19,919 nucleotides of DNA from Candidatus Poribacteria bacterium (GCA_965205025.1 CBDBFU010000006.1:1-19919), one strand, 5' to 3'. Shown: positions 2,765 through 13,962, counted from the first letter of the stretch. Translations and numbers: made by a program. Notes: generated by a model not told the origin, from the letters alone.

Positions 2765-3585
2765 TTAGGTATTTTCCGCTTCTGCATGAGCAAGTTGATT
2801 ACGGAGTTCTTCCAATTCTGTTTCCAGTTCTCGTCTCCGTTCTACTTCTTCAGCAGCCTTCGCTTCGGCTGCTTTCCTATGTTCTTGTTCTTGTAATCTC
2901 AGTTCTTGTTCTTGTATTCGAAGTTGTTTATCTTCAAAAGGTGTATTTATTGGTGTGCCATCAGGAAGAAATGGGCGTAATAACCTTACATGAGTATCTT
3001 GTTGTTTTCCCAACGAAATAAGAGGTTCAATGCCTTGCTAAATAAACCACCTTGATTATCTTGTTTTATTTCTTTCACTTTTCCTGAAGCACTACGCTGC
3101 CAACCACGAAATTCTGACTTTTTGTCCATTTCAGGTTGATGGATGAAGTATTCTTGAACCCCTATATCATGTAGATACAGATCTGCCTTGTCATTTCGGT
3201 CATGGTGTGCTGTCGCATCTGACAAAAATTCAAAAACGGCAACAGGTGCTGCACCTTCTGCCCATGTGTAAAAGCTACGTCTTAGTGGATATTTATCTAC
3301 TCCAAAAACAACATAAATATCCGGTGCAACGACCTTTCTGATATCTCCTTCTTGATAGTAAATGAAGCTGTCAATTCCCACGTGAATGTGTGGATCCACA
3401 TAAAAATAAACTGAAAGTTGGTGGAAAAACGTACTTATCTGTAAACCGTGAAAATCCGTTGCTGCCATAGGTTCGTCGTCCTCAAAAGGATAACCTTCGA
3501 TGTAAACAGTTGGGTTTCCACTTGCTTTTGGAAAGTCGGGGATATATTTTTTCTGTTTGAGACTGAAATCGTCTAAGGTATCCAT
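2765..3585 (-). CDS. Uma2 (DUF820) family PD-(D/E)xK endonuclease with coiled-coil C-terminal tail; one frameshift
   Basis: DDEPMA..FH, VAPDIYVVFGV, AVFEFLS, IGVQEYFI. Adding one base to the T4 run at 3005-3008 joins LLFRWE to KQQDTHVRLLRPFLPDG and the QEQE-rich coil. GGAG RBS supports ATG 3585. Confidence 0.85.
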
Positions 3586-3922
3586 ACATTTATCTCCGTT
3601 GCTTATCTGCATTGGAATATATTTAATTTTGGTAATTGGATTATCGTATTAATGAATATTTGCTAAACTATAAATGCTTCTATGTTTAAAGTATACTGAA
3701 TTTTATCAAAATATATGCAATTTTGCAAACCGAAGTTTGGCAATGGGTTTGTAATTTTCTGACATGAAGACTACTTATATTTACAGTTTTTAGACACATT
3801 TCTATAAGAAATACTCAAACATAGATTCGACATCTATTACCGAGTTTCAGGGCATAACATGATTATTCCAAAGTTACAATGCTTCCATTATATGTGCGGT
3901 ATTTCAAGAAGTGAATGCAGTA

Positions 3923-3948
3923 AAGCATCAGAAGTAATTCTGGTGCTT
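3923..3948. terminator. Stem-loop, possible terminator of the minus-strand membrane-protein cluster
   Basis: AAGCATCAGAA-GTAA-TTCTGGTGCTT: 11-bp stem (one G-U pair on the + strand), about 40 nt past the stop at 3989. U-tract is weak. Confidence 0.45.
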
Positions 3949-3988
3949 AATTTATACTGAATTTTGAGTGGGTTTTATGATGCGGAAA

Positions 3989-5423
3989 CTAACACACCTC
4001 TAATAATCCAGATGTATCGTTGGTGACTGTATCATTATCTCCATTTTTAGTTGTCTGTTTTAACCACTCTATCCAGTATTTTCTCTGATTCATACACCCA
4101 ATTAAGAAACCCTTCGTTTCAAAATAGTAGGATATAATCGCAAGACATAAAATTAACAATATTTGTATAGAATCTGAAAAACCTTCAAGAAATAGCATAT
4201 CTGTAATACCGTATGCGAGAACAAAACATAAGGTCCATCCAAGAATGTAGTACACAATTTGTACTGGTTTTTCCATCATCAATTCTAAAGTCAATTTCAT
4301 AGTGTAGAGAAAGGTTTTATCTGAAGACATATCTGAAATTGTTGACATCCGTTACAGGATAATCTGTCTTATTCTGATTGTTTTCATACCAATTATACCA
4401 AAAATTCTGTTCTAACCTTATTCCTTTTATTTTTCCTTTAGCTTCTCTATAGCTCATTATATAGGCAACAATAGAAAAAGGAATTGTAAATGATAAGAAC
4501 ATGTTGGTTAAATCAGATACTATCGAATTATTTCCCATACCCCATAAACCTATACAGAGAACAATAAAGAGTATTGGAATTACTATTACCCATACAAGAA
4601 ACTGTTTATACATGTGTGTTGGGTTTTGAAGTGTGAATATGATTGTTTTTATAACTGCTGAGAAGAAAGACTCTACAGTTTCAGACTGTGATGGCGGATC
4701 GTCAAGATCTTTATAGTGAGATTGATGATTTTGTTTATACCAATACAACCAACTTTCTCTTTCAACAGATATTCCTTTAACATAACCCGTTGATGCACAG
4801 AAACTCGAAAGTACAGTTAATAGAATTGTTGGAATTAAAAAATTAGTGTATATAGTTCCTAATTCAAGCATTGTCTGGCTAAAACCAAAATATGGATTAT
4901 AAATGTGTTTTTCAAAACCAAAGATAACAGTAACCATTATGAAAAAACATGTCCAATACAATACATGCAATGAAATATCTCGTAAATTGGCATAGCTATA
5001 ATTGTTTGATTTAGGTATGTTTGATAAATGCTTACCAGTATCCGATATATTCTCTTCTGCTAAAGAATTATACCAATTCATCCAAATCTTTCTTTCTATT
5101 TCAATTCCTTTCAGAGTATTTCTTGCTATCAAAAAACAAATCATCAATGTTGGAATTATTACCAGCCAAAATCTTTGATAGGATAAATCACGAACAATCT
5201 CTTCTACCATTAATGAAATACCAGTGAATATCTTCCATATTGACCAAGGTAGTGCCGTCGACCAGTTTTCTATTTCTTCCATCGCATCCGGTAAAGTGCC
5301 ATATTGGAAAGGATCATCAGATATAGTCCCTAATGCAGAAAAGATTAACCAACAAATCAAAAAGTATAAGAATAACGGTGATGGATTTTGAATCATGAAT
5401 ATAATTGTCTTTCGAATTTTCAT
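3989..5423 (-). CDS. Hypothetical polytopic membrane protein with four G..E/QR..W..W modules (paralog of 5476-6918); probable frameshift at about 4320-4350
   Basis: ORFs 4317-5435 and 3989-4348 together align with the whole 480-aa neighbour (ALPWSIWK vs ALPWSLWT; LAYGITDMLFLE vs LLYGFTDWLLLE). GGAG RBS supports ATG 5423. No RBS seen before 4348. Confidence 0.75.
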
Positions 5424-5451
5424 ACTACGCTCCACTTCATTGTAGGTTCAT

Positions 5452-5465
5452 TTTCAATTGAAACT
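5452..5465. promoter_or_regulatory. Palindrome TTTCAATTGAAA(CT), putative operator; copy 1
   Basis: Perfect 12-bp palindrome; identical 14-mer at 12662-12675. Confidence 0.4.
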
Positions 5466-5475
5466 CATACCTAAT

Positions 5476-6918
5476 TTAGTTAATGATGGGTGGTAATTCA
5501 GTAAAAGGTAAATCTTCATTTTTCACTTCAATTAACCTATGATACCAAGCAGTCCATTCTTGTCTTTCATGTATCATACCTATTGTTTCTTGCTGCGTCT
5601 CCAAAATGCTCGTAATAAATGTAAGAATGACTACAACCAACAATTGTACAAAGTTATCGTGTCGTTCAAGAAGCAACCAATCTGTAAAACCGTAAAGAAG
5701 TATCAGAGTACAAATCCATCCAGCGAAATGACATACCAGAATTTGTGGTTTTCTGAATATAGCAATAACAGAATCCTGGAGAGTCAAGAAGAATTGGTCG
5801 TATAAATCCCAAATTGAATTTTTAGCCTTCTTAACGATGTTTGTTGATACCCCTTGAAAATTATCTAAATATTCATTTACCCATCTTTCTTGTTCTATAG
5901 CTTTTCCTCTCTGCCTTCCAATTGCTTTACGATAAGAAATTATGAGTGTAAATACAATTGCACTTATACTATATTCCATTAGTAGACGACTTATCCTATC
6001 TGGTTTTAAACTAAGCCAATAGCCCAGAGATAATGAATAGATAAAGTGACAACTTATAATCCAAAAACTAAAATGCAGAATTATTGAGATGGGTTGACGT
6101 AATATCAGATTCAGTGTACTTATATGGTTTTTAAGAAGAGTATATAAATGAATATCAACCGATTTTGGTGGTTCATGATGATGTTTCTCTTGTGAGATGT
6201 ATTTAGAATTTACAAAATACCATTTTGTCCAGACATGTCTCTCTGATTTGGCTCCATTGATGATACTATTTGCTTCTATGTAAGTTGAAGCAATAGTACA
6301 TATTGTTGATAGAATACTTATTACGAGCAGATTAATTAGGTCTATACTAAAGGATGAAATTATAGATCGTATTAGTATTAATATTGTAAAAGCAATTAGA
6401 TGATAGAGGAAATGACGAACCAATAATATAGGTGTGCGAACGATATATTTTACTGTATTATAAACCCTCTTTAAATGTGAGTTTACTTTAATTGAACCAG
6501 ATAGAATGGGGAGAGTATTTGTGCCTCCATGTCCGTCATCATTTTTCTGTTTTTCATACCATCGTATCCAAACATCCCTTTCTGTTCGGATACCGTTCTT
6601 TCTTCCTCTGTTTGCACAATAGTATGAAATAATTGTAGGTAGTATAGCAAAGGGAAGTATATTGTGACCAAAGTTAACAAATTCACTTACTATTTCTTTC
6701 ACTATATCTGAGAGTGCTAAAACAATTGTCCATAAAGACCATGGTAAAGCATCAAATGAACTACTTATATCTTCAGTAAAGTCTTTAAATGTCCATCTGG
6801 CGAATGAATCGTCTACAACTGTAGCTATTGTTGAAAATATAGATACAAAAATTAGAAAGTAGATTACTAATGAGATCAGATTTAGAATTCTGAGTTTTTC
6901 TGATGTTAGAAATGTCAT
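5476..6918 (-). CDS. Hypothetical polytopic membrane protein with four repeated modules
   Basis: 480-aa ORF with GAGGA RBS and paired hydrophobic segments, each pair followed by GIRTERDVWIRWY, GAKSERHVWTKWY, GKAIEQERWVNEY or GMIHERQEWTAWY. Confidence 0.85.
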   Translation of the reverse strand: MTFLTSEKLRILNLISLVIYFLIFVSIFSTIATVVDDSFARWTFKDFTEDISSSFDALPWSLWTIVLALSDIVKEIVSEFVNFGHNILPFAILPTIISYYCANRGRKNGIRTERDVWIRWYEKQKNDDGHGGTNTLPILSGSIKVNSHLKRVYNTVKYIVRTPILLVRHFLYHLIAFTILILIRSIISSFSIDLINLLVISILSTICTIASTYIEANSIINGAKSERHVWTKWYFVNSKYISQEKHHHEPPKSVDIHLYTLLKNHISTLNLILRQPISIILHFSFWIISCHFIYSLSLGYWLSLKPDRISRLLMEYSISAIVFTLIISYRKAIGRQRGKAIEQERWVNEYLDNFQGVSTNIVKKAKNSIWDLYDQFFLTLQDSVIAIFRKPQILVCHFAGWICTLILLYGFTDWLLLERHDNFVQLLVVVILTFITSILETQQETIGMIHERQEWTAWYHRLIEVKNEDLPFTELPPIIN

Positions 6919-7419: not shown

Positions 7420-8493
7420 TTAATTTGCTTTAACTTCATCCCACACTCTACTATATTTCTGGGTGAAGTCACCTAAATCCTTCAACCACTCAAGACTTTG
7501 CATTGTTTCTTTGGAAGGAAATATATATTCATGCTCAAGTAATTTCTTAGGTAAATACTCTTTAGCAGTTGGTACACATGTACCATACATAGTGAATGTG
7601 GAAATTTTGGCATTGATATCGGGTCGAAGTAAATAATTTATGAATTTATGCGCAAGTTCTAAATGTGGTGCTGATTTTGGAATACAAACATTGTCTATAA
7701 ATTGACTGGAACCCTCTTTTGGGATAACATACTTAATTGATGGACGCTTCTCAGCTGCACGAAAAGCATCACCACTCCAGCAATGTGCCATTACTACGTC
7801 ACCAGAAATCAGGAGTTCCTCTGCCTCGTTTTTATATTGTTTTACAAGATCTCTCTGTTCAATTAATTTTTCTTTTGCTTGTTGAAGTTGGTCCATATCC
7901 TTGGTATTAAGACTATATCCCAACAATTTCAAGGCAACACCGGGGGTCTCGCGTTGGTCATCAAGCATACTAAACTGATTCTTATTATTTTCATCCCAGA
8001 AGACTTTCCAACTGTCTACAACTGTTGTTATAATAGATGAATCGTATGCAATTCCTGCTGTACCAAAAGTGTAAGGAATGGAATAGTTGTTATTTGGATC
8101 GAAATACTTATCAAGGTAGAAGGGACTTATTTTTTCAAAATTTGTTATCTTATCACGGTCTAACTTTGCCAATAATTCCAACTGAATCATCTTTGATACC
8201 ATATAATCTGATGGCATGATAATATCGTAACCAGTTGCCCCTGCTTTTAACTTGGCTAATAAGTCTTCATTTGTACCGTATGTATCAACAATAACCTTCA
8301 CCCCATATTCCTGTTCAAAACCTGAACGAATTTCTTCGCTAATATAAGTTGGCCAAGTAAAGATATTTAATTGATTCTGTGAATCACCACAACCTGTTGG
8401 AATAATTAAGACTAATGAAATGCAGAATAATAGTAAACATATATATATCAATGATCTTAAATTTCTACTAAGAAAAACAATTCTTTCAAACAT
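7420..8493 (-). CDS. potD: Spermidine/putrescine ABC transporter substrate-binding lipoprotein (PotD/PotF family)
   Basis: LNIFTWPTYI, FEQEYGVKV..DTYGTNE, GYDIIMPSDYMV, YSIPYTFGTAGIAYD, WSGDA, YVIPKEGS, AHKFINYLLRP; hydrophobic N-terminus with lipobox-like PTGC. Confidence 0.92.
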   Translation of the reverse strand: MFERIVFLSRNLRSLIYICLLLFCISLVLIIPTGCGDSQNQLNIFTWPTYISEEIRSGFEQEYGVKVIVDTYGTNEDLLAKLKAGATGYDIIMPSDYMVSKMIQLELLAKLDRDKITNFEKISPFYLDKYFDPNNNYSIPYTFGTAGIAYDSSIITTVVDSWKVFWDENNKNQFSMLDDQRETPGVALKLLGYSLNTKDMDQLQQAKEKLIEQRDLVKQYKNEAEELLISGDVVMAHCWSGDAFRAAEKRPSIKYVIPKEGSSQFIDNVCIPKSAPHLELAHKFINYLLRPDINAKISTFTMYGTCVPTAKEYLPKKLLEHEYIFPSKETMQSLEWLKDLGDFTQKYSRVWDEVKAN

Positions 8494-9118: not shown

Positions 9119-9562
9119 ATGGACCAATTAAAAGATGCTCTACAATCTGTCATTGATAAAGACCGTATCGGTAGTCCAGTATTTATACGTGCAATTCTGA
9201 ACATTACTGATAATGTAGAAACTCTAATACAACCTACAACAGGGCTAATTGCCTTTTCCAATGAGTTGCTACCATCAGAATCACATAGTGTATACGCGCA
9301 GGCTTCTGATGATGACATTCAAGTAACTGTTATGTTACATTATGTAGGTGGTCAGATGGCGTTATTGAGTACAAATCGAGTTAATAGCCAAACCGATATT
9401 GATCTAATGTTAGTAGGAAATAAAGGAGTGATTTATCACCAAACACCAATAGGAAGAAATTATCTCAGTGGAACTCCACCAAAACTTGGTGAAACTGGAC
9501 CACTAACCGATGTGATTACACAATCACTTGCTACAGGAAAACCAATTATAGTGGAGGGATAA
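9119..9562 (+). CDS. Hypothetical protein resembling a stand-alone Gfo/Idh/MocA C-terminal domain
   Basis: GGAGGA RBS before ATG 9119. VIDKDRIGSPVFIRA, LMLVGNKGVI and QSLATGKPIIVE parallel VLNDGIIGELKAIHC, VYLVGTDAAL and KSAATGKVIQLE of the next gene. Confidence 0.7.
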   Translation: MDQLKDALQSVIDKDRIGSPVFIRAILNITDNVETLIQPTTGLIAFSNELLPSESHSVYAQASDDDIQVTVMLHYVGGQMALLSTNRVNSQTDIDLMLVGNKGVIYHQTPIGRNYLSGTPPKLGETGPLTDVITQSLATGKPIIVEG

Positions 9563-9564
9563 TT

Positions 9565-10713
9565 ATGTCTAATAATCATAAATATGGAGTTTTATTGCTT
9601 GGAGGACATCGTACACATCAAGAAAACTATTCAATTAACTTTGAAAACGATTCACGTTGTAAGTTGGTAGCATTTGCCGATGAACCAGATGCTCCCGATG
9701 AACGTATTAGGTTGGCACGTTCCCTTGCAGAAGAGAGGGATTTACCATTCATACCTAACCTTGATGAAGCATTATCACGGGAGGATATACACATTGTTAG
9801 TTTATGTATAGATGTAGAACGTCGTGGACGGATTGGTGCGAAATGTGCGAATGCAGGAAAGCATGTATATCTTGATAAACCTATGGCACTAAATGCAGAA
9901 CATGCTCAACAAATTGTCCAAGCAGTTGAAGAAAATAGTGTCATAACACAAATGTTCAGTAATATTCATAGTAGTTGGGCACGTTCAGTTAAGGATGTAT
10001 TGAATGATGGAATAATTGGTGAACTAAAAGCAATTCATTGTGATGTGATGTTTGCCAAAGGACATCCAGGAAGTGCGACTGTTGGGAAAAAACGAAGTCA
10101 GTATCCTACACTTGATAGATACAGTTTCATGGAAGCAAAACCTGAAATGTTTGACGTTGGTGTTTATGCAGTGTCAATGGTGAATTGGTTGACTCAGAGA
10201 CGTGCTTTCCAAGTATTTTGTGGTACAGGTAATTACTTCTTTAAAGAACATCAGAATTGTGATGTAGAAGATTTTGGAGCAATGGTTCTATCTTTAGAAG
10301 AAGGGGTTACTGCAACCATTGCTGCTGGACGCTATGGATGGCAGAGCCATGCACAAGGAGGTATACGCAAAGTATACCTTGTTGGCACTGATGCCGCGTT
10401 GACATTTGATGCGTCAGCAAATAGGTTAGAAGTATTTGCTGCTGAACCAGCATTTATTCCTCCTGAACCCCATCCACTTGACCCAATGGGAATGTGGAGT
10501 AGTACGCAAGCAGAAATCGGTAGGAGTGTAAAAAATCATTGGATAGATGTCGACAACGGTGATGATGGACAAAGAGAATTCAGTGCCTTTATTGACTGTA
10601 TTGATAAGGGTGAAGAAAGTGAGATGAATGCTCAATTTGCTGCACATTCGGTAGAAATTATCTGTGCAGGATATAAGTCTGCTGCTACAGGAAAGGTAAT
10701 TCAACTTGAATAG
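9565..10713 (+). CDS. Gfo/Idh/MocA family NAD(P)-dependent oxidoreductase
   Basis: LDEALSREDIHIVSL, AGKHVYLDKPMA, GIIGEL, FDVGVYAV, VEDFG, AGYKSAATGKVI; GGAGG RBS inside the end of the upstream gene. Confidence 0.92.
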   Translation: MSNNHKYGVLLLGGHRTHQENYSINFENDSRCKLVAFADEPDAPDERIRLARSLAEERDLPFIPNLDEALSREDIHIVSLCIDVERRGRIGAKCANAGKHVYLDKPMALNAEHAQQIVQAVEENSVITQMFSNIHSSWARSVKDVLNDGIIGELKAIHCDVMFAKGHPGSATVGKKRSQYPTLDRYSFMEAKPEMFDVGVYAVSMVNWLTQRRAFQVFCGTGNYFFKEHQNCDVEDFGAMVLSLEEGVTATIAAGRYGWQSHAQGGIRKVYLVGTDAALTFDASANRLEVFAAEPAFIPPEPHPLDPMGMWSSTQAEIGRSVKNHWIDVDNGDDGQREFSAFIDCIDKGEESEMNAQFAAHSVEIICAGYKSAATGKVIQLE

Positions 10714-10779: not shown

Positions 10780-12588
10780 CTAACCCGTTATACCTTGTGA
10801 TTCAAGTTGTGCAATCTGTCGCATCCAAGATTCTCGAATTTCAGGGGTGTAGTCAAGAGGTAATAGCGATTTACGAGTACAGTTCAGGTAGGCTTGGAGA
10901 GTTTGATATTTTCGGATCGGTCCAATATTAGGTAAGATTCTATCCGATATTACCTCAATGATTTCTTCTTCAGTTAATTCACCCTTACGTGCTTTTGCTG
11001 CTTCTAAATCAGCGCGGAGTGACCCAAAACTGGCTGCAGAATAACCTTCTGTTAAATCTTCAAAACGTTCAAGTTTTTCTTCATTAACTTCACTTGGAAT
11101 CACATTGTTTAGTGTCCATCGTAAAAATTCTTCACGATCCTCTCCCATAGGATCAAGAACTGGGATTACTATATCTCCCACCCGACCTTCTCTACGTAGA
11201 TCTGGAGAAAGATTGTATATTCGGGCTGTCATTAATAACCAGGTAATGTTTCCTCGTAGGTGAGGATCAGACATCATTGCTTGGATCTTACCAGTCAGTC
11301 GTCGTTCAGTAGAGTGTGCATCTGAACCTACACTTCCAAATTGCGTATCAGCTTCATCAACAAAAATGAGAACATTGACAAGTGCCATCAATAGACGGCG
11401 AAGTCTCTCAAAAATTACATCTGTCTGACCAAACCACATACTCCGAATATTCTTGAGTACAAGAACTGGGATATCAAGTTCACCAGCAAGACCTTCAAAG
11501 ATGAACGTCTTACCGCTACCTATAGGACCACATACACTAAAGCCTGAGATAGCATCTTTTCCAGTTGAGGTAATACGCGGAATAAGTTGTGATCTAAGGT
11601 ATTCAATTAACTTCCTATTACCAATAATATCCTTAAGACTATGATTTGGTTTCTTAAATTCTACAACATCCTCACCTAATTGTGCTTGAATGAACTCGGA
11701 TACTTTTTCTATAACTGTTTCGGGTTGTAGTTTATCTCCAGAATAGCATACCGATAGTAAGAGTTGACGTAACGCTTGAATTGATAGACCTGCTGTAAGA
11801 ATTCCGAGTTGGGACTGACTACCCCAGAGGTTTAATACCTTATCTTTAGGTTTCTGTGTTCTATTAAACCATGATATAAAATGTCTTCGATCTTCCTCAT
11901 CTGGAGAAGGAATTTCAACACTGACTACTTGAGGTAAACGCATAATTCGAGAGTTTATCAGACTTCTGGATTCAGCAATAAATACTACTGTATCTGAAGA
12001 TTTCATAAAATCTGATTCTGAAATCCAATCTTGTACAATACTGACGCGATGTCTATCTCCAATGTTTAAACTACGTATCTCTCCTTCAGGTAATAACATA
12101 TCTGTTGCTTCAATAAGGATTATGAGTTTGTCAGATAATAAAGGTTCTCCACTGATTTTTTTTGTCCGTGAAATGAGACAAAATTGTCTGAGTAATTCAA
12201 GGGCTAATGTTGGACTACCAATAGCATCATTGAGATATTCATCAAACCTATCCTTAGAAAATCCTTCTGGTTTCTGAGACTTTAATTCTGATAATTCTGA
12301 CAGATTTCGTTCTGATGAAAATGCTGAAGGCTTTGTCAGATCAGACCCGATCAGTTTACGCCAACTGTGAAAAGCAGTCTTCATAGATTTCCTATCATGG
12401 GAATTCAGAAATCTTAAGGGACCATTTAATTCATATACAATGAGTATAAACCCAGGTATATCCCAGCTACGAGTTAGAAATGGTACAAGGGGTATATAGT
12501 CTTCCTGTTTTTTGTCTTGAATAAAAAACAGATCATGTATATTACCATGAAGTACAATACTACGGGATGTACCGGAATTAATGAGCAT
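10780..12588 (-). CDS. AAA family ATPase (classic clade) with a degenerate N-terminal AAA-like domain; true start possibly ATA at 12633
   Basis: Walker A GPIGSGKT, pore loop RSMWFGQT, Walker B LIFVDEAD, SRH LSPDLRREGRVG. N-terminal half has a Walker-B-like LIILIEATD but no Walker A. Confidence 0.92.
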   Translation of the reverse strand: MLINSGTSRSIVLHGNIHDLFFIQDKKQEDYIPLVPFLTRSWDIPGFILIVYELNGPLRFLNSHDRKSMKTAFHSWRKLIGSDLTKPSAFSSERNLSELSELKSQKPEGFSKDRFDEYLNDAIGSPTLALELLRQFCLISRTKKISGEPLLSDKLIILIEATDMLLPEGEIRSLNIGDRHRVSIVQDWISESDFMKSSDTVVFIAESRSLINSRIMRLPQVVSVEIPSPDEEDRRHFISWFNRTQKPKDKVLNLWGSQSQLGILTAGLSIQALRQLLLSVCYSGDKLQPETVIEKVSEFIQAQLGEDVVEFKKPNHSLKDIIGNRKLIEYLRSQLIPRITSTGKDAISGFSVCGPIGSGKTFIFEGLAGELDIPVLVLKNIRSMWFGQTDVIFERLRRLLMALVNVLIFVDEADTQFGSVGSDAHSTERRLTGKIQAMMSDPHLRGNITWLLMTARIYNLSPDLRREGRVGDIVIPVLDPMGEDREEFLRWTLNNVIPSEVNEEKLERFEDLTEGYSAASFGSLRADLEAAKARKGELTEEEIIEVISDRILPNIGPIRKYQTLQAYLNCTRKSLLPLDYTPEIRESWMRQIAQLESQGITG

Positions 12589-12660
12589 TCCAGTTTCAGA
12601 TCTAAATGTGTATGTAGGATCTTTAACTGCTATTGTTCTATCCTCTTAATACATGAAATG

Positions 12661-12675
12661 GTTTCAATTGAAACT
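12661..12675. promoter_or_regulatory. Palindrome GTTTCAATTGAAAC, putative operator; copy 2
   Basis: Perfect 14-bp palindrome at 12661-12674; shares TTTCAATTGAAACT with 5452-5465. Confidence 0.45.
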
Positions 12676-12716
12676 TCAGTTATTGGAATTTGTTTAGTTG
12701 TAGGAACCAACGTATA

Positions 12717-12767
12717 AACGGGCATCTATAGTATCTCAAAATAAAGAGAAATAACTTAGTGCCCGTT
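12717..12767. other. Intergenic stem-loop between the PspA-like and AAA genes
   Basis: AACGGGCA(T)CTA (12717-12728) pairs with TAGTGCCCGTT (12757-12767); inner TCTC/GAGA hairpin. Confidence 0.5.
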
Positions 12768-12800
12768 AATATGTAATAACATAGTACCCGTCAATATGTA

Positions 12801-13640
12801 CTATAATGGTAGTTCAGAATCTGTTTTCTTTTCTTCAGATGTTGCTGAATCGGATTCCACAGGTGCATCTGTCTGTTGTGCACCAAAAATCAATGAATCA
12901 AATTCCTGACTTGAGGCTGCTTCTTGAGCAGCATTAAGGAATTCTTCTTCCTCAGATTTTGAATCAGTTCCAGCAAGTTCCTGTGCAACTTTTGACCGAC
13001 CTTTTGCTTTTTCTCTAATTTCACGCATTCTTGTCAGTTCTGCAGAAGTGCCATCCATACTAATACCTGATAACATATCAGCCACCTCTTCCTGTTCCCG
13101 GGCAGTAATTAAGTCTGCTACTGCCTCAGATTGTTCAGTTTTTATCTTATCTAAATCACGATGAAGTGTGGTGATTTGAATTTTGTGTGATTCAATATCC
13201 TCTTGTGCTCTTTCAATATCTGCTTCTAATTCATCAATCCGAGCGTTTTTCTCATCCAAAGTAGAATGAAAATCGTTAAAGGCTGCTACACAACGTGTAT
13301 ATTCTGGATGTTGCTTTATTTCTTCATCAGCTGTACCAGCCTTCTGTAATTCTGTAGCAGTAGATTTTGCTTTTGCAATTGCACCGGCTTTCTTTTTTTC
13401 TAAATCCTCCACCTCATCTGTTAATTTCTTAACAGATAAATTCTTTTGTTCACAAAGTGCGATCAATTGTCCTATCGCTTGTTTATATCGTTGGATATTT
13501 CCTTGTTTATCGCGAATAATATCTTCATAAGCACCCCGAACAGCTTCTGGATTCTCCATCATCTTATCAGCTTGTTCGTGTGCACGTCCAGTAAGTGAAT
13601 ACCAGATTGCTTTAAAAAAACGGGTTATGCCATTTGCCAT
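12801..13640 (-). CDS. PspA/IM30 (Vipp1/ESCRT-III-like) family coiled-coil protein, divergent
   Basis: AGGAGG RBS; N-terminal amphipathic helix GITRFFKAIWYSL; ENPE equivalent to the PspA EDP turn; long helical hairpin; LSGISMDGTSAELTRMRE hinge; acidic tail; no TM segment. Confidence 0.75.
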   Translation of the reverse strand: MANGITRFFKAIWYSLTGRAHEQADKMMENPEAVRGAYEDIIRDKQGNIQRYKQAIGQLIALCEQKNLSVKKLTDEVEDLEKKKAGAIAKAKSTATELQKAGTADEEIKQHPEYTRCVAAFNDFHSTLDEKNARIDELEADIERAQEDIESHKIQITTLHRDLDKIKTEQSEAVADLITAREQEEVADMLSGISMDGTSAELTRMREIREKAKGRSKVAQELAGTDSKSEEEEFLNAAQEAASSQEFDSLIFGAQQTDAPVESDSATSEEKKTDSELPL

Positions 13641-13878: not shown

Positions 13879-13962
13879 GTCAATTACGATGTAATATCTA
13901 ACATGCGTCAATTACGATGTAATATCTAACATGCGTCAATTACGATGTAATATCTAACATGC
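13879..13962. repeat. Perfect tandem repeat, 3 x 28 bp
   Basis: GTCAATTACGATGTAATATCTAACATGC at 13879-13906, 13907-13934 and 13935-13962, with no spacers. Confidence 0.97.

Follow-up and report, generated by a model that had tools for sequence, protein, structure and literature searches.

Do the bacterial relatives of ESCRT-III have an ATPase of their own? Excerpts of PMC8281802 pose as an open question whether a dedicated ATPase remodels PspA and Vipp1, and state that no such partner is known for Vipp1; an excerpt of a 2025 review (PMC7619361) holds that bacteria seem to lack a Vps4-like ATPase. The question is raised by two genes in a stretch of 19,919 nucleotides from Candidatus Poribacteria bacterium (GCA_965205025.1, CBDBFU010000006.1:1-19919), hereafter called the window. 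Two co-directional open reading frames (ORFs) lie on its minus strand, where an initial annotation of the sequence had placed them: gene 1 (12801-13640), coding for a PspA-like protein of 279 residues, and gene 2 (10780-12588, 602 residues when counted from the first ATG), coding for an AAA ATPase. The reading that we hold with about even confidence is that the pair constitutes a membrane-remodelling module, a polymer-and-motor cycle in which tail-bearing PspA-like subunits would be threaded by a hexamer of the ATPase. The folds, the states of the motifs, the conservation of the pair and its tail motif, and the pattern of start codons described below were all computed.

The genome containing the window was searched as an assembly of 5.66 Mb in 33 contigs, with a completeness of 95.5%. 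Gene 1 is the only match to PF04012 in this genome, PF04024 (PspC) has no match anywhere in it, and Snf7 was not found in it either. Within the window, the lack of pspB, pspC and pspF asserted by the initial annotation held true, as none of the 16 other ORFs scanned matched a PspB, PspC or sigma54-activator family. Homologues above 75% identity come from sources whose names include "Candidatus Poribacteria".

Predicted folds of the two proteins

Gene 1 begins with an ATG behind GGAGGG. Its product matches PF04012 from residue 9 to residue 243 (profile positions 3-205 of 220) with an E-value of 3.3e-7, and 13 of the 20 members of its family reach E<=0.001 with this profile. When a profile of the 20 members was searched against the PDB, four Vipp1/PspA chains were retrieved with E-values from 1.9e-6 to 3.9e-6, followed by an unrelated match at 0.009, which places the homology to solved PspA and Vipp1 at the profile level. 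The AlphaFold (AF2) model of the protein has a mean predicted local distance difference test score (pLDDT) of 77.2, with values above 90 in the hairpin, and displays the PspA/IM30 layout: an amphipathic helix a0 (residues 3-17), a long hairpin predicted to consist of a1 (31-100, 70 residues), a tip (101-111) and a2/3 (112-192, 81 residues), then a4 (195-224), a5 (227-241), a short helix (248-251) and a disordered acidic tail running to residue 279. When this model was searched against the PDB with Foldseek, Vipp1 took the first six ranks, with an identity of about 18%. An ESCRT-III/PspA-type fold, whose prediction had been set beforehand as a test, was recovered by AF2, with Vipp1 as the first match both in Foldseek and in the profile search. 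Judged from the model and the profiles, gene 1 encodes a divergent PspA/ESCRT-III-type protein.

The motifs quoted in the initial annotation are all present, namely ENPE (residues 29-32), LQKAGTADEEIKQHPEY (98-114) and QEFDSLIFG (245-253) in the PspA-like protein, and SMWFGQT (383-389) in the ATPase. The amphipathic character that it had attributed to the N-terminal helix exceeds chance, the hydrophobic moment of 0.54 being the highest of the protein and being reached in 23 of 5000 shuffles. The insertion that it had proposed at the tip of the hairpin is borne out in part: residues 98-114 do form the tip of the long hairpin in the AF2 model, and an insertion is partly shown by the PF04012 match, which covers 235 protein residues against 203 profile positions, and by two divergent relatives in which the tip is 9 residues shorter.

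In gene 2, the match to PF00004 is confined to residues 352-472 (E 2.1e-13). This second half of the protein, D2 (10780-11688, minus strand, like all positions given for gene 2), comprises a classical-clade AAA cassette, predicted active, with its lid and C-terminal helices. It contains a Walker A motif GPIGSGKT (11506-11529), a pore loop SMWFGQT (11422-11442), a Walker B motif VDEAD (11347-11361), the arginines R466 and R469 (within 11173-11199) and a conserved C-terminal motif YQTLQAYLNCTRKSLLP (10858-10908). We aligned 39 representatives of the family, down to 25% identity. K360 is conserved in all 39, E412, the aromatic pore loop, G387 and R469 in 38 each, and D411 in 37, so that the Vps4-type catalytic set (pore loop 1, Walker A and B, arginine fingers) is intact in 37 to 39 members. 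The first half (11689-12633) comprises a conserved N-terminal peptide and D1, a degenerate AAA fold with no P-loop: HGNIHDLF stands at the Walker A position, and a helical insert spans residues 63-141, disordered in part (85-108). The Walker A pattern GxxxxGK[ST] was found in the D1 of none of the 39 members, and D1 can thus not be counted as nucleotide-binding. No Pfam family matches this half, and its ESM Atlas matches are unnamed clusters only.

The model computed from the 39-row alignment (pLDDT 90.6, predicted template-modelling score 0.86) contains two AAA cassettes. With Foldseek, about 600 columns were aligned to the D1-D2 tandem of Rix7, Drg1, Cdc48, p97 and NVL, with E-values from 1e-17 to 1e-15. 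With VIA, residues 1-573 were superposed on residues 259-780 of Drg1 (463 residues, Z 21.9), and the D1-D2 tandems of Rix7, NVL, Cdc48, p97, VAT and Pex1/6 aligned likewise (Z 20-22, about 430-470 residues). The single-cassette proteins Vps4, FIGNL1, spastin, Rpt and FtsH match the second half only, over about 250-270 residues; D2 was superposed on Vps4 with a Z of 20.9 over 269 residues (root mean square deviation 3.2). As the matches to Drg1, FIGNL1, Vps4, spastin, Rpt and FtsH lie within about 2 Z units, the fold assigns D2 to no sub-family. The best sequence matches in the PDB are VAT, Cdc48, p97, AFG2 and NVL. From its model and the state of its motifs, gene 2 encodes two AAA domains in tandem, a dead D1 and a Cdc48-like D2, the latter active by motif state.

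No curated family covers this ATPase. An identity with Vps4 or CdvC was rejected: no MIT domain family figures among the Pfam matches at E<=1, the N-terminal half aligning instead to the D1 of type II AAA proteins; the model has two cassettes and not the single one of type I; D1 is without a P-loop; and NF041006 (CdvC) gives 30.5 bits against a cut-off of 650, matching 30 of the 39 members, all far below that cut-off. Membership of Cdc48/p97 was rejected as well. The Cdc48-type N-domain (double-psi barrel) is missing from the ATPase, the alignments beginning at residue 218 of p97, 228 of Cdc48 and 204 of VAT; D1 has no Walker A; and TIGR01243 (CDC48) gives 47.4 bits against a cut-off of 802.65, with 36 of the 39 members matched, again all far below. 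The label "Vps4/p97-like" of the initial annotation therefore keeps its p97-like part, the whole model superposing on D1-D2 tandems, and loses its Vps4-like part.

The genome of the window also encodes a paralogue of the ATPase on another contig (contig C20; locus L105, 10925-12775). This protein of 616 residues is 22% identical, has the same two-domain length and stands alone; two divergently oriented Hsp20 genes lie near it, and such a paralogue is present in most relatives.

Conservation of the pair, its operon and its tail motif

Relatives of the ATPase were collected by scanning one genome per species with a closer, 10-row ATPase alignment. The scan yielded 466 confirmed relatives, of which the best 80 loci were used, so that distant branches are under-sampled. 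These 80 loci consist of 71 close ones (68 titled Poribacteria), 2 from Hydrogenedentota, 1 from Sumerlaeota, 2 of Planctomycetota type, 1 each from Acidobacteria, CSSED10-310 and Verrucomicrobia, and 1 other. A PspA-like ORF was found upstream on the same strand in 72 of the 80, including those of Planctomycetota, Acidobacteria and CSSED10-310. The gap between the two genes is at most 300 nt in 43 of the 72 loci, 300-2500 nt in 21 and more than 2500 nt in 8. Among the 8 loci without such an ORF, the sequence extends less than 2.5 kb upstream in 7; in the eighth, from Verrucomicrobia, a PspA-like gene lies 11 kb away on the same strand and contig, behind two large ORFs of the opposite strand. 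The 5 non-Poribacteria genomes among these 8 were searched again and 4 of them contain a PspA-like gene (E about 1e-100). Even in a branch whose ATPase is only 28% identical (L017/L018), the PspA-like gene is still in the same operon. Conservation of the gene pair across genomes, which the initial annotation had named as a check, thus extends over about five phylum labels.

A similar picture emerged from 40 relatives of the window's genome, in which both genes are present in 5 of 8 genera and neither is in the other 3. In the genus of the window, all 24 genomes contain the ATPase and 22 of them the PspA-like gene; in both misses, the ATPase lies at most 2.4 kb from a contig end. The pair is strongly conserved. 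The independent evidence for the pairing consists of the roughly five phylum labels and of a linkage that survived gene gain and loss. This both-or-neither distribution across 8 genera, together with a linkage that is maintained in at least 5 phylum-level labels and while genes were gained and lost in between, argues against the notion that common descent alone keeps the two genes side by side and that they are not directly coupled in function. That most supporting loci belong to close kin, and that the complex prediction described below is weak, are the points in its favour, and we regard it as very improbable.

Outside the clade of the window, in Planctomycetota, Acidobacteria, CSSED10-310 and Verrucomicrobia, the pair sits within an eight-gene operon. 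Its first four genes encode a vWA protein, a protein of about 525 residues with transmembrane (TM), periplasmic-binding-like (PBP) and OmpA parts, a TM protein of about 255 residues without Pfam match, and the PspA-like protein; the last four encode a binding-protein-like protein of about 360 residues, a permease, an ABC ATPase and the tandem AAA protein. The sponge-associated clade has lost the transporter genes, and the gap between the pair does not exceed 300 nt in the 43 loci mentioned above; the window represents such a reduced form. Using the 281-residue and 607-residue accessory proteins of same-genus relatives as queries, no match was obtained in the window's genome, and a 535-residue accessory protein matched only through an OmpA domain located elsewhere. 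Some members of the genus have, beside the pair, conserved ORFs without Pfam match, of about 600, 191 and 281 residues (4134-5957, 7808-8383 and 9161-10006 in locus L021).

The eight-gene operon, with its vWA, OmpA-domain, permease and ABC ATPase genes, speaks for a different role, in which the PspA-like polymer would act as an adaptor that only recruits the ATPase to the membrane, where envelope proteins, for instance those of the vWA/TM-PBP-OmpA/ABC transporter set, would be extracted or assembled. Cdc48 and Msp1-type relatives do extract membrane proteins. We nevertheless consider this role distinctly unlikely: the accessory genes were not found in the window's genome with the queries used, yet the pair is kept there and tightly linked, so that the pair alone must be functional, which weakens the adaptor explanation.

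A neighbourhood of this kind was already noted in comparative genomics, as the initial annotation had stated. Section 18 of PMC11237479 (mSystems 2024) describes a gene-neighbourhood class that associates PspA with a protein of two AAA+ domains, the N-terminal copy being inactive, and proposes an ATP-dependent membrane remodelling comparable to that of Snf7/VPS4. The pair in the window answers to this description, with a PspA homologue beside a two-AAA+ protein whose first domain is inactive and with the same proposed role, and the longer operon of the relatives, with its ABC ATPase, permease and PBP+OmpA protein, is shared with the class as that section presents it. The window differs from it in being reduced to two genes and in having a PspA-like protein below the threshold of PF04012. 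The exemplars of that class are AEY64321.1 and OGG56892.1. The pair is hence a member of a kind so far described only computationally, with the association and the remodelling proposal already in print. New here are the tail motif, the arrays of tail-less paralogues in relatives, the two-gene form and the probable AUH (AUA, AUC or AUU) start of the ATPase; section 18 mentions neither the motif, nor the arrays, nor the start, and the supplements of PMC11237479 may say more or list the clade. We found no literature joining "Poribacteria" and "PspA", and excerpts of PMC9239133 and PMC5087111 mention neither the ATPase nor PspA in these organisms.

The C-terminal tail of the PspA-like protein (residues 225-279; 12804-12968, minus strand) is the acidic tail with a short hydrophobic helix that had been recognised in the initial annotation: its 55 residues include 15 D/E and 3 K/R, the helix EFDSLIFGA is encoded at 12882-12908, and the protein ends in S-E-L-P-L. 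Beyond a5, the family alignment shows cross-phylum conservation of EFLxxA, EF[D/E]xLIxxA and a terminal LP, EF[DESN]xL[IVL] and the terminal LP being kept from the relatives of the window to Planctomycetota, Acidobacteria and CSSED10-310. A script detected EF[DESN]xL[IVL] within the last 70 residues of 71 of the 72 PspA-like copies proximal to the ATPase. In 18 loci, 1 to 3 additional PspA-like ORFs are found upstream, and none of these 27 extra copies has the motif. A tail confined to the subunit encoded next to the ATPase is the pattern expected of a handle for recruitment or threading, and is not proof of one.

The extra copies form tandem arrays in same-genus relatives (L019 6683-9735, L020 6169-8241, L021 7034-9159 and L022 2299-4286). 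These arrays hold 1 to 3 ORFs of 153-266 residues, upstream of the tail-bearing copy and all without the C-terminal tail. Some of the six-frame matches to extra copies contain in-frame stops, and in two extra copies a0 is followed by an acidic insert of 30 residues. The window has no extra copy, and its 1-kb stretch upstream of gene 1 shows no recognisable remnant of extra copies or accessory genes (best match 37 residues, E 0.06).

A candidate polymer-and-motor cycle

If the pair is a membrane-remodelling module, its cycle could run as follows. The amphipathic a0 of the PspA-like protein would bind the inner face of the cytoplasmic membrane and its a1-a5 core would, by homology, polymerise into rings, rods or coats like those of Vipp1 and PspA. 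The flexible acidic tail, with its short helix (EFDxLI..A) and terminal LP, would project from this polymer. The nucleotide-free D1 ring of the ATPase would provide a scaffold and a docking platform, and the Cdc48-like D2 ring would pull the tail-bearing subunit by means of its aromatic pore loop. Extraction of subunits would in turn lead to disassembly, recycling or dynamic remodelling of the polymer, which is Vps4's job for ESCRT-III. Threading of the tail by the ATPase is suggested by the restriction of the motif to the proximal paralogue and by a weak pass in complex prediction.

In that prediction, the ATPase and residues 190-279 of the PspA-like protein obtained a score of 0.39 (0.39, 0.39 and 0.47 in the runs), against 0.00 for the best of three controls and within a range where, unless there is a strong prior, most passes are wrong. 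The partner had a pLDDT of at least 52, the runs agreed in at least 70% of contacts, and the verdict was "weak support". Of 80 solved complexes, 58 reach the mark applied, as do 2 of 110 mismatched pairs; passes at or below 0.60 concern 7 of the 80 solved complexes and both of the passing mismatches.

The same signal and the conserved pairing fit equally well with a sensor-and-brake arrangement like that of PspA and PspF, in which the PspA-like protein would inhibit the ATPase in unstressed cells and release it on moving to damaged membrane, the freed ATPase then acting as an unfoldase or disaggregase on other clients. This would also tie a PspA-family protein functionally to an AAA+ protein, as in Escherichia coli; PspB and PspC, on the other hand, are missing here. 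We judge the arrangement unlikely. PspF is a sigma54 enhancer-binding protein with a helix-turn-helix (HTH), whereas no HTH or sigma54-interaction domain figures among the Pfam and NCBIfam matches of the ATPase at E<=1; the ATPase belongs to the classical clade and not to that of bacterial enhancer-binding proteins; and the conserved disordered acidic tail, present on the proximal copy only, resembles a threading handle more than an inhibitory surface, the hairpin being the part of PspA that binds PspF. Its other points of support are that PspA negatively regulates PspF in E. coli, as excerpts of PMC7619361 and PMC8281802 state, and that the 22%-identical ATPase paralogue beside two Hsp20 genes hints at a chaperone-type ancestry of the family.

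Several observations weigh against the remodelling module itself. At the level of the PspA-like protein, the PF04012 score of 30.6 bits falls below the gathering score of 33.9, which is the threshold of the curated family, and 7 of the 20 family members miss the profile at E<=0.001; in Foldseek, E<=0.001 is reached by the first-ranked match only and numerous unrelated coiled coils come next, and the support from Foldseek is weakened because long helical hairpins match many such proteins. The ATPase has neither an MIT domain nor a recognised substrate-recruiting N-domain with which to find the tail, and the complex prediction, besides its doubtful range, returned no interface. The C-terminal helix of Vipp1, which follows a flexible linker, acts on lipids and self-assembly, and the tail motif could therefore serve a role unrelated to the ATPase. 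The ancestral operon, with its vWA, TM/PBP/OmpA and ABC importer genes, leaves room for other substrates. The counts also make the independent support look larger than it is, since the 80 loci come for the most part from closely related organisms labelled Poribacteria. Finally, no bench characterisation of either protein family was found in the literature.

Comparison with known systems places the pair between several of them. As with ESCRT-III and Vps4 or CdvC, a gene for a polymer of the superfamily lies directly upstream of, and adjoining, that of an AAA ATPase of the classical clade whose pore loop is aromatic; D2 superposes on Vps4, and a C-terminal tail motif is carried by some paralogues only. 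The differences from that system are the missing MIT domain, the two cassettes instead of one, a sequence nearer to Cdc48/VAT and the bacterial host. The tail motif is also unlike the MIT-interacting motifs (MIMs). With Cdc48/p97/VAT, Drg1/AFG2, Rix7, NVL and Pex1/6 the ATPase shares the tandem D1-D2 fold (about 450-470 aligned residues) and its best sequence matches, and with the D2 of p97 the MWFG pore loop; it is set apart from Cdc48/p97/VAT by the lack of an N-domain and of any Walker A in D1 (0 of 39). The PspA-like protein is closest to the Vipp1/IM30 of cyanobacteria, which provides its best structural and profile matches and has the same a0-a5 layout with a C-terminal extension after a flexible linker, but the identity is about 18% and the hairpin of gene 1 is longer.

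A bolder proposal, which we put forward as tentative and rather doubtful, is that the pair is a functional analogue of ESCRT-III/Vps4 built independently in bacteria from a Cdc48-like tandem AAA protein. The tail-bearing subunit would recruit the ATPase and the tail-less paralogues of relatives would co-polymerise with it, a mixture reminiscent of ESCRT-III subunits with and without MIMs. ATP-driven turnover, and not passive coating, would power scission, vesicle formation or repair, and the AUH start would fix a low ratio of motor to polymer. Should the ATPase indeed disassemble the polymer, an ATP-driven polymer cycle would either predate archaeal Vps4 or have been invented twice from Cdc48-like stock. 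The locus is a minimal form of a widespread candidate, with two genes, no other PspA, Snf7 or PspC in its genome and a clear candidate handle, and this makes a long-standing question testable in vitro with two recombinant proteins.

The ATPase start codon, the inter-gene region and the flanks

Upstream of its first ATG, the ATPase frame has 15 further open codons, which encode a conserved peptide, I-AVKDPTYTFRSETG, corresponding to the pattern AVKxPxYxF..EAG of the family. A Shine-Dalgarno sequence, AAGAGGA (12641-12647), precedes an ATA codon (12631-12633) with a spacer of 7 nt, the whole putative start region spanning 12631-12647 on the minus strand. The gene thus probably extends over 10780-12633 and starts at this non-canonical ATA, which sets the gap to gene 1 at 167 nt and not 212. 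We surveyed this position in the 71 close loci (L023-L092 and L099): it is occupied by ATA in 51, ATC in 15 and ATT in 1, making 67 of 71, and by ATG in 4. In all 67 of these loci a Shine-Dalgarno-like tetramer was found 5-16 nt upstream of the codon; in 56, no ATG, GTG or TTG occurs between the nearest in-frame stop and the codon; and in 21, the downstream Met of the window is missing. With an ATA, ATC or ATT start, the public records of the protein (602-646 residues) begin at an internal Met, and so too late, or at an upstream chance codon, and so too early. This near-universal use of AUA, AUC or AUU in the clade is a separate and checkable oddity of translation control.

Directly after the stop codon of the PspA-like gene, a stem-loop followed by UUUAU is predicted (12713-12771, minus strand), with a minimum free energy of -27.3 kcal/mol and a z of -3.41; 1 of 200 shuffles folds as well. 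It is possibly an attenuator or a transcript-stabilising hairpin. It was not among the sites called by a simple terminator scan. This hairpin and the weak AUA start of gene 2 suggest a low ratio of ATPase to polymer, the ATPase being probably kept scarce relative to its substrate. Two points tell against this proposed control: AUH initiation is deduced from conservation alone, and the sequence of the stem-loop is conserved in three close relatives with a compensatory change in 0 of 15 pairs, so that the structure is supported by energy only. A 25-nt unit occurs twice at 12750-12800, directly after the stop codon of gene 1, and duplicates the 5' arm of the stem-loop; close relatives have one copy.

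The flanks of the pair are unrelated to it. Downstream lie GFO/IDH/MocA oxidoreductase ORFs on the opposite strand; upstream of gene 1, the 1-kb non-coding stretch is followed by a divergent heptosyltransferase cluster. An Rfam scan of the window at gathering scores gave no match. A consensus scan of the window gave 13 promoter-like sites for 18.4 expected and 2 terminator-like sites for 1.7 expected, none of either kind lying between gene 1 and gene 2. Four ORFs of 208, 119, 372 and 480 residues follow one another at 2986-6918 on the minus strand, without any Pfam family at E<=0.001. Near the start of the window, an ORF of 242 residues (274-1002) matches a sulfatase profile at positions 114-270 of 301 only, and another of 172 residues (1959-2477) contains a C-terminal enolase-superfamily domain only; both are possibly truncated genes. 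Finally, a 28-nt unit is repeated three times in perfect head-to-tail copies at 13879-13962, 239-322 nt upstream of gene 1. Within each copy lies an inverted repeat of 5 bp (ATTAC-3 nt-GTAAT). The unit has three matches in the genome, all at this place, and it is absent from the other 107 loci compared; the triple repeat may be a binding array for a regulator.

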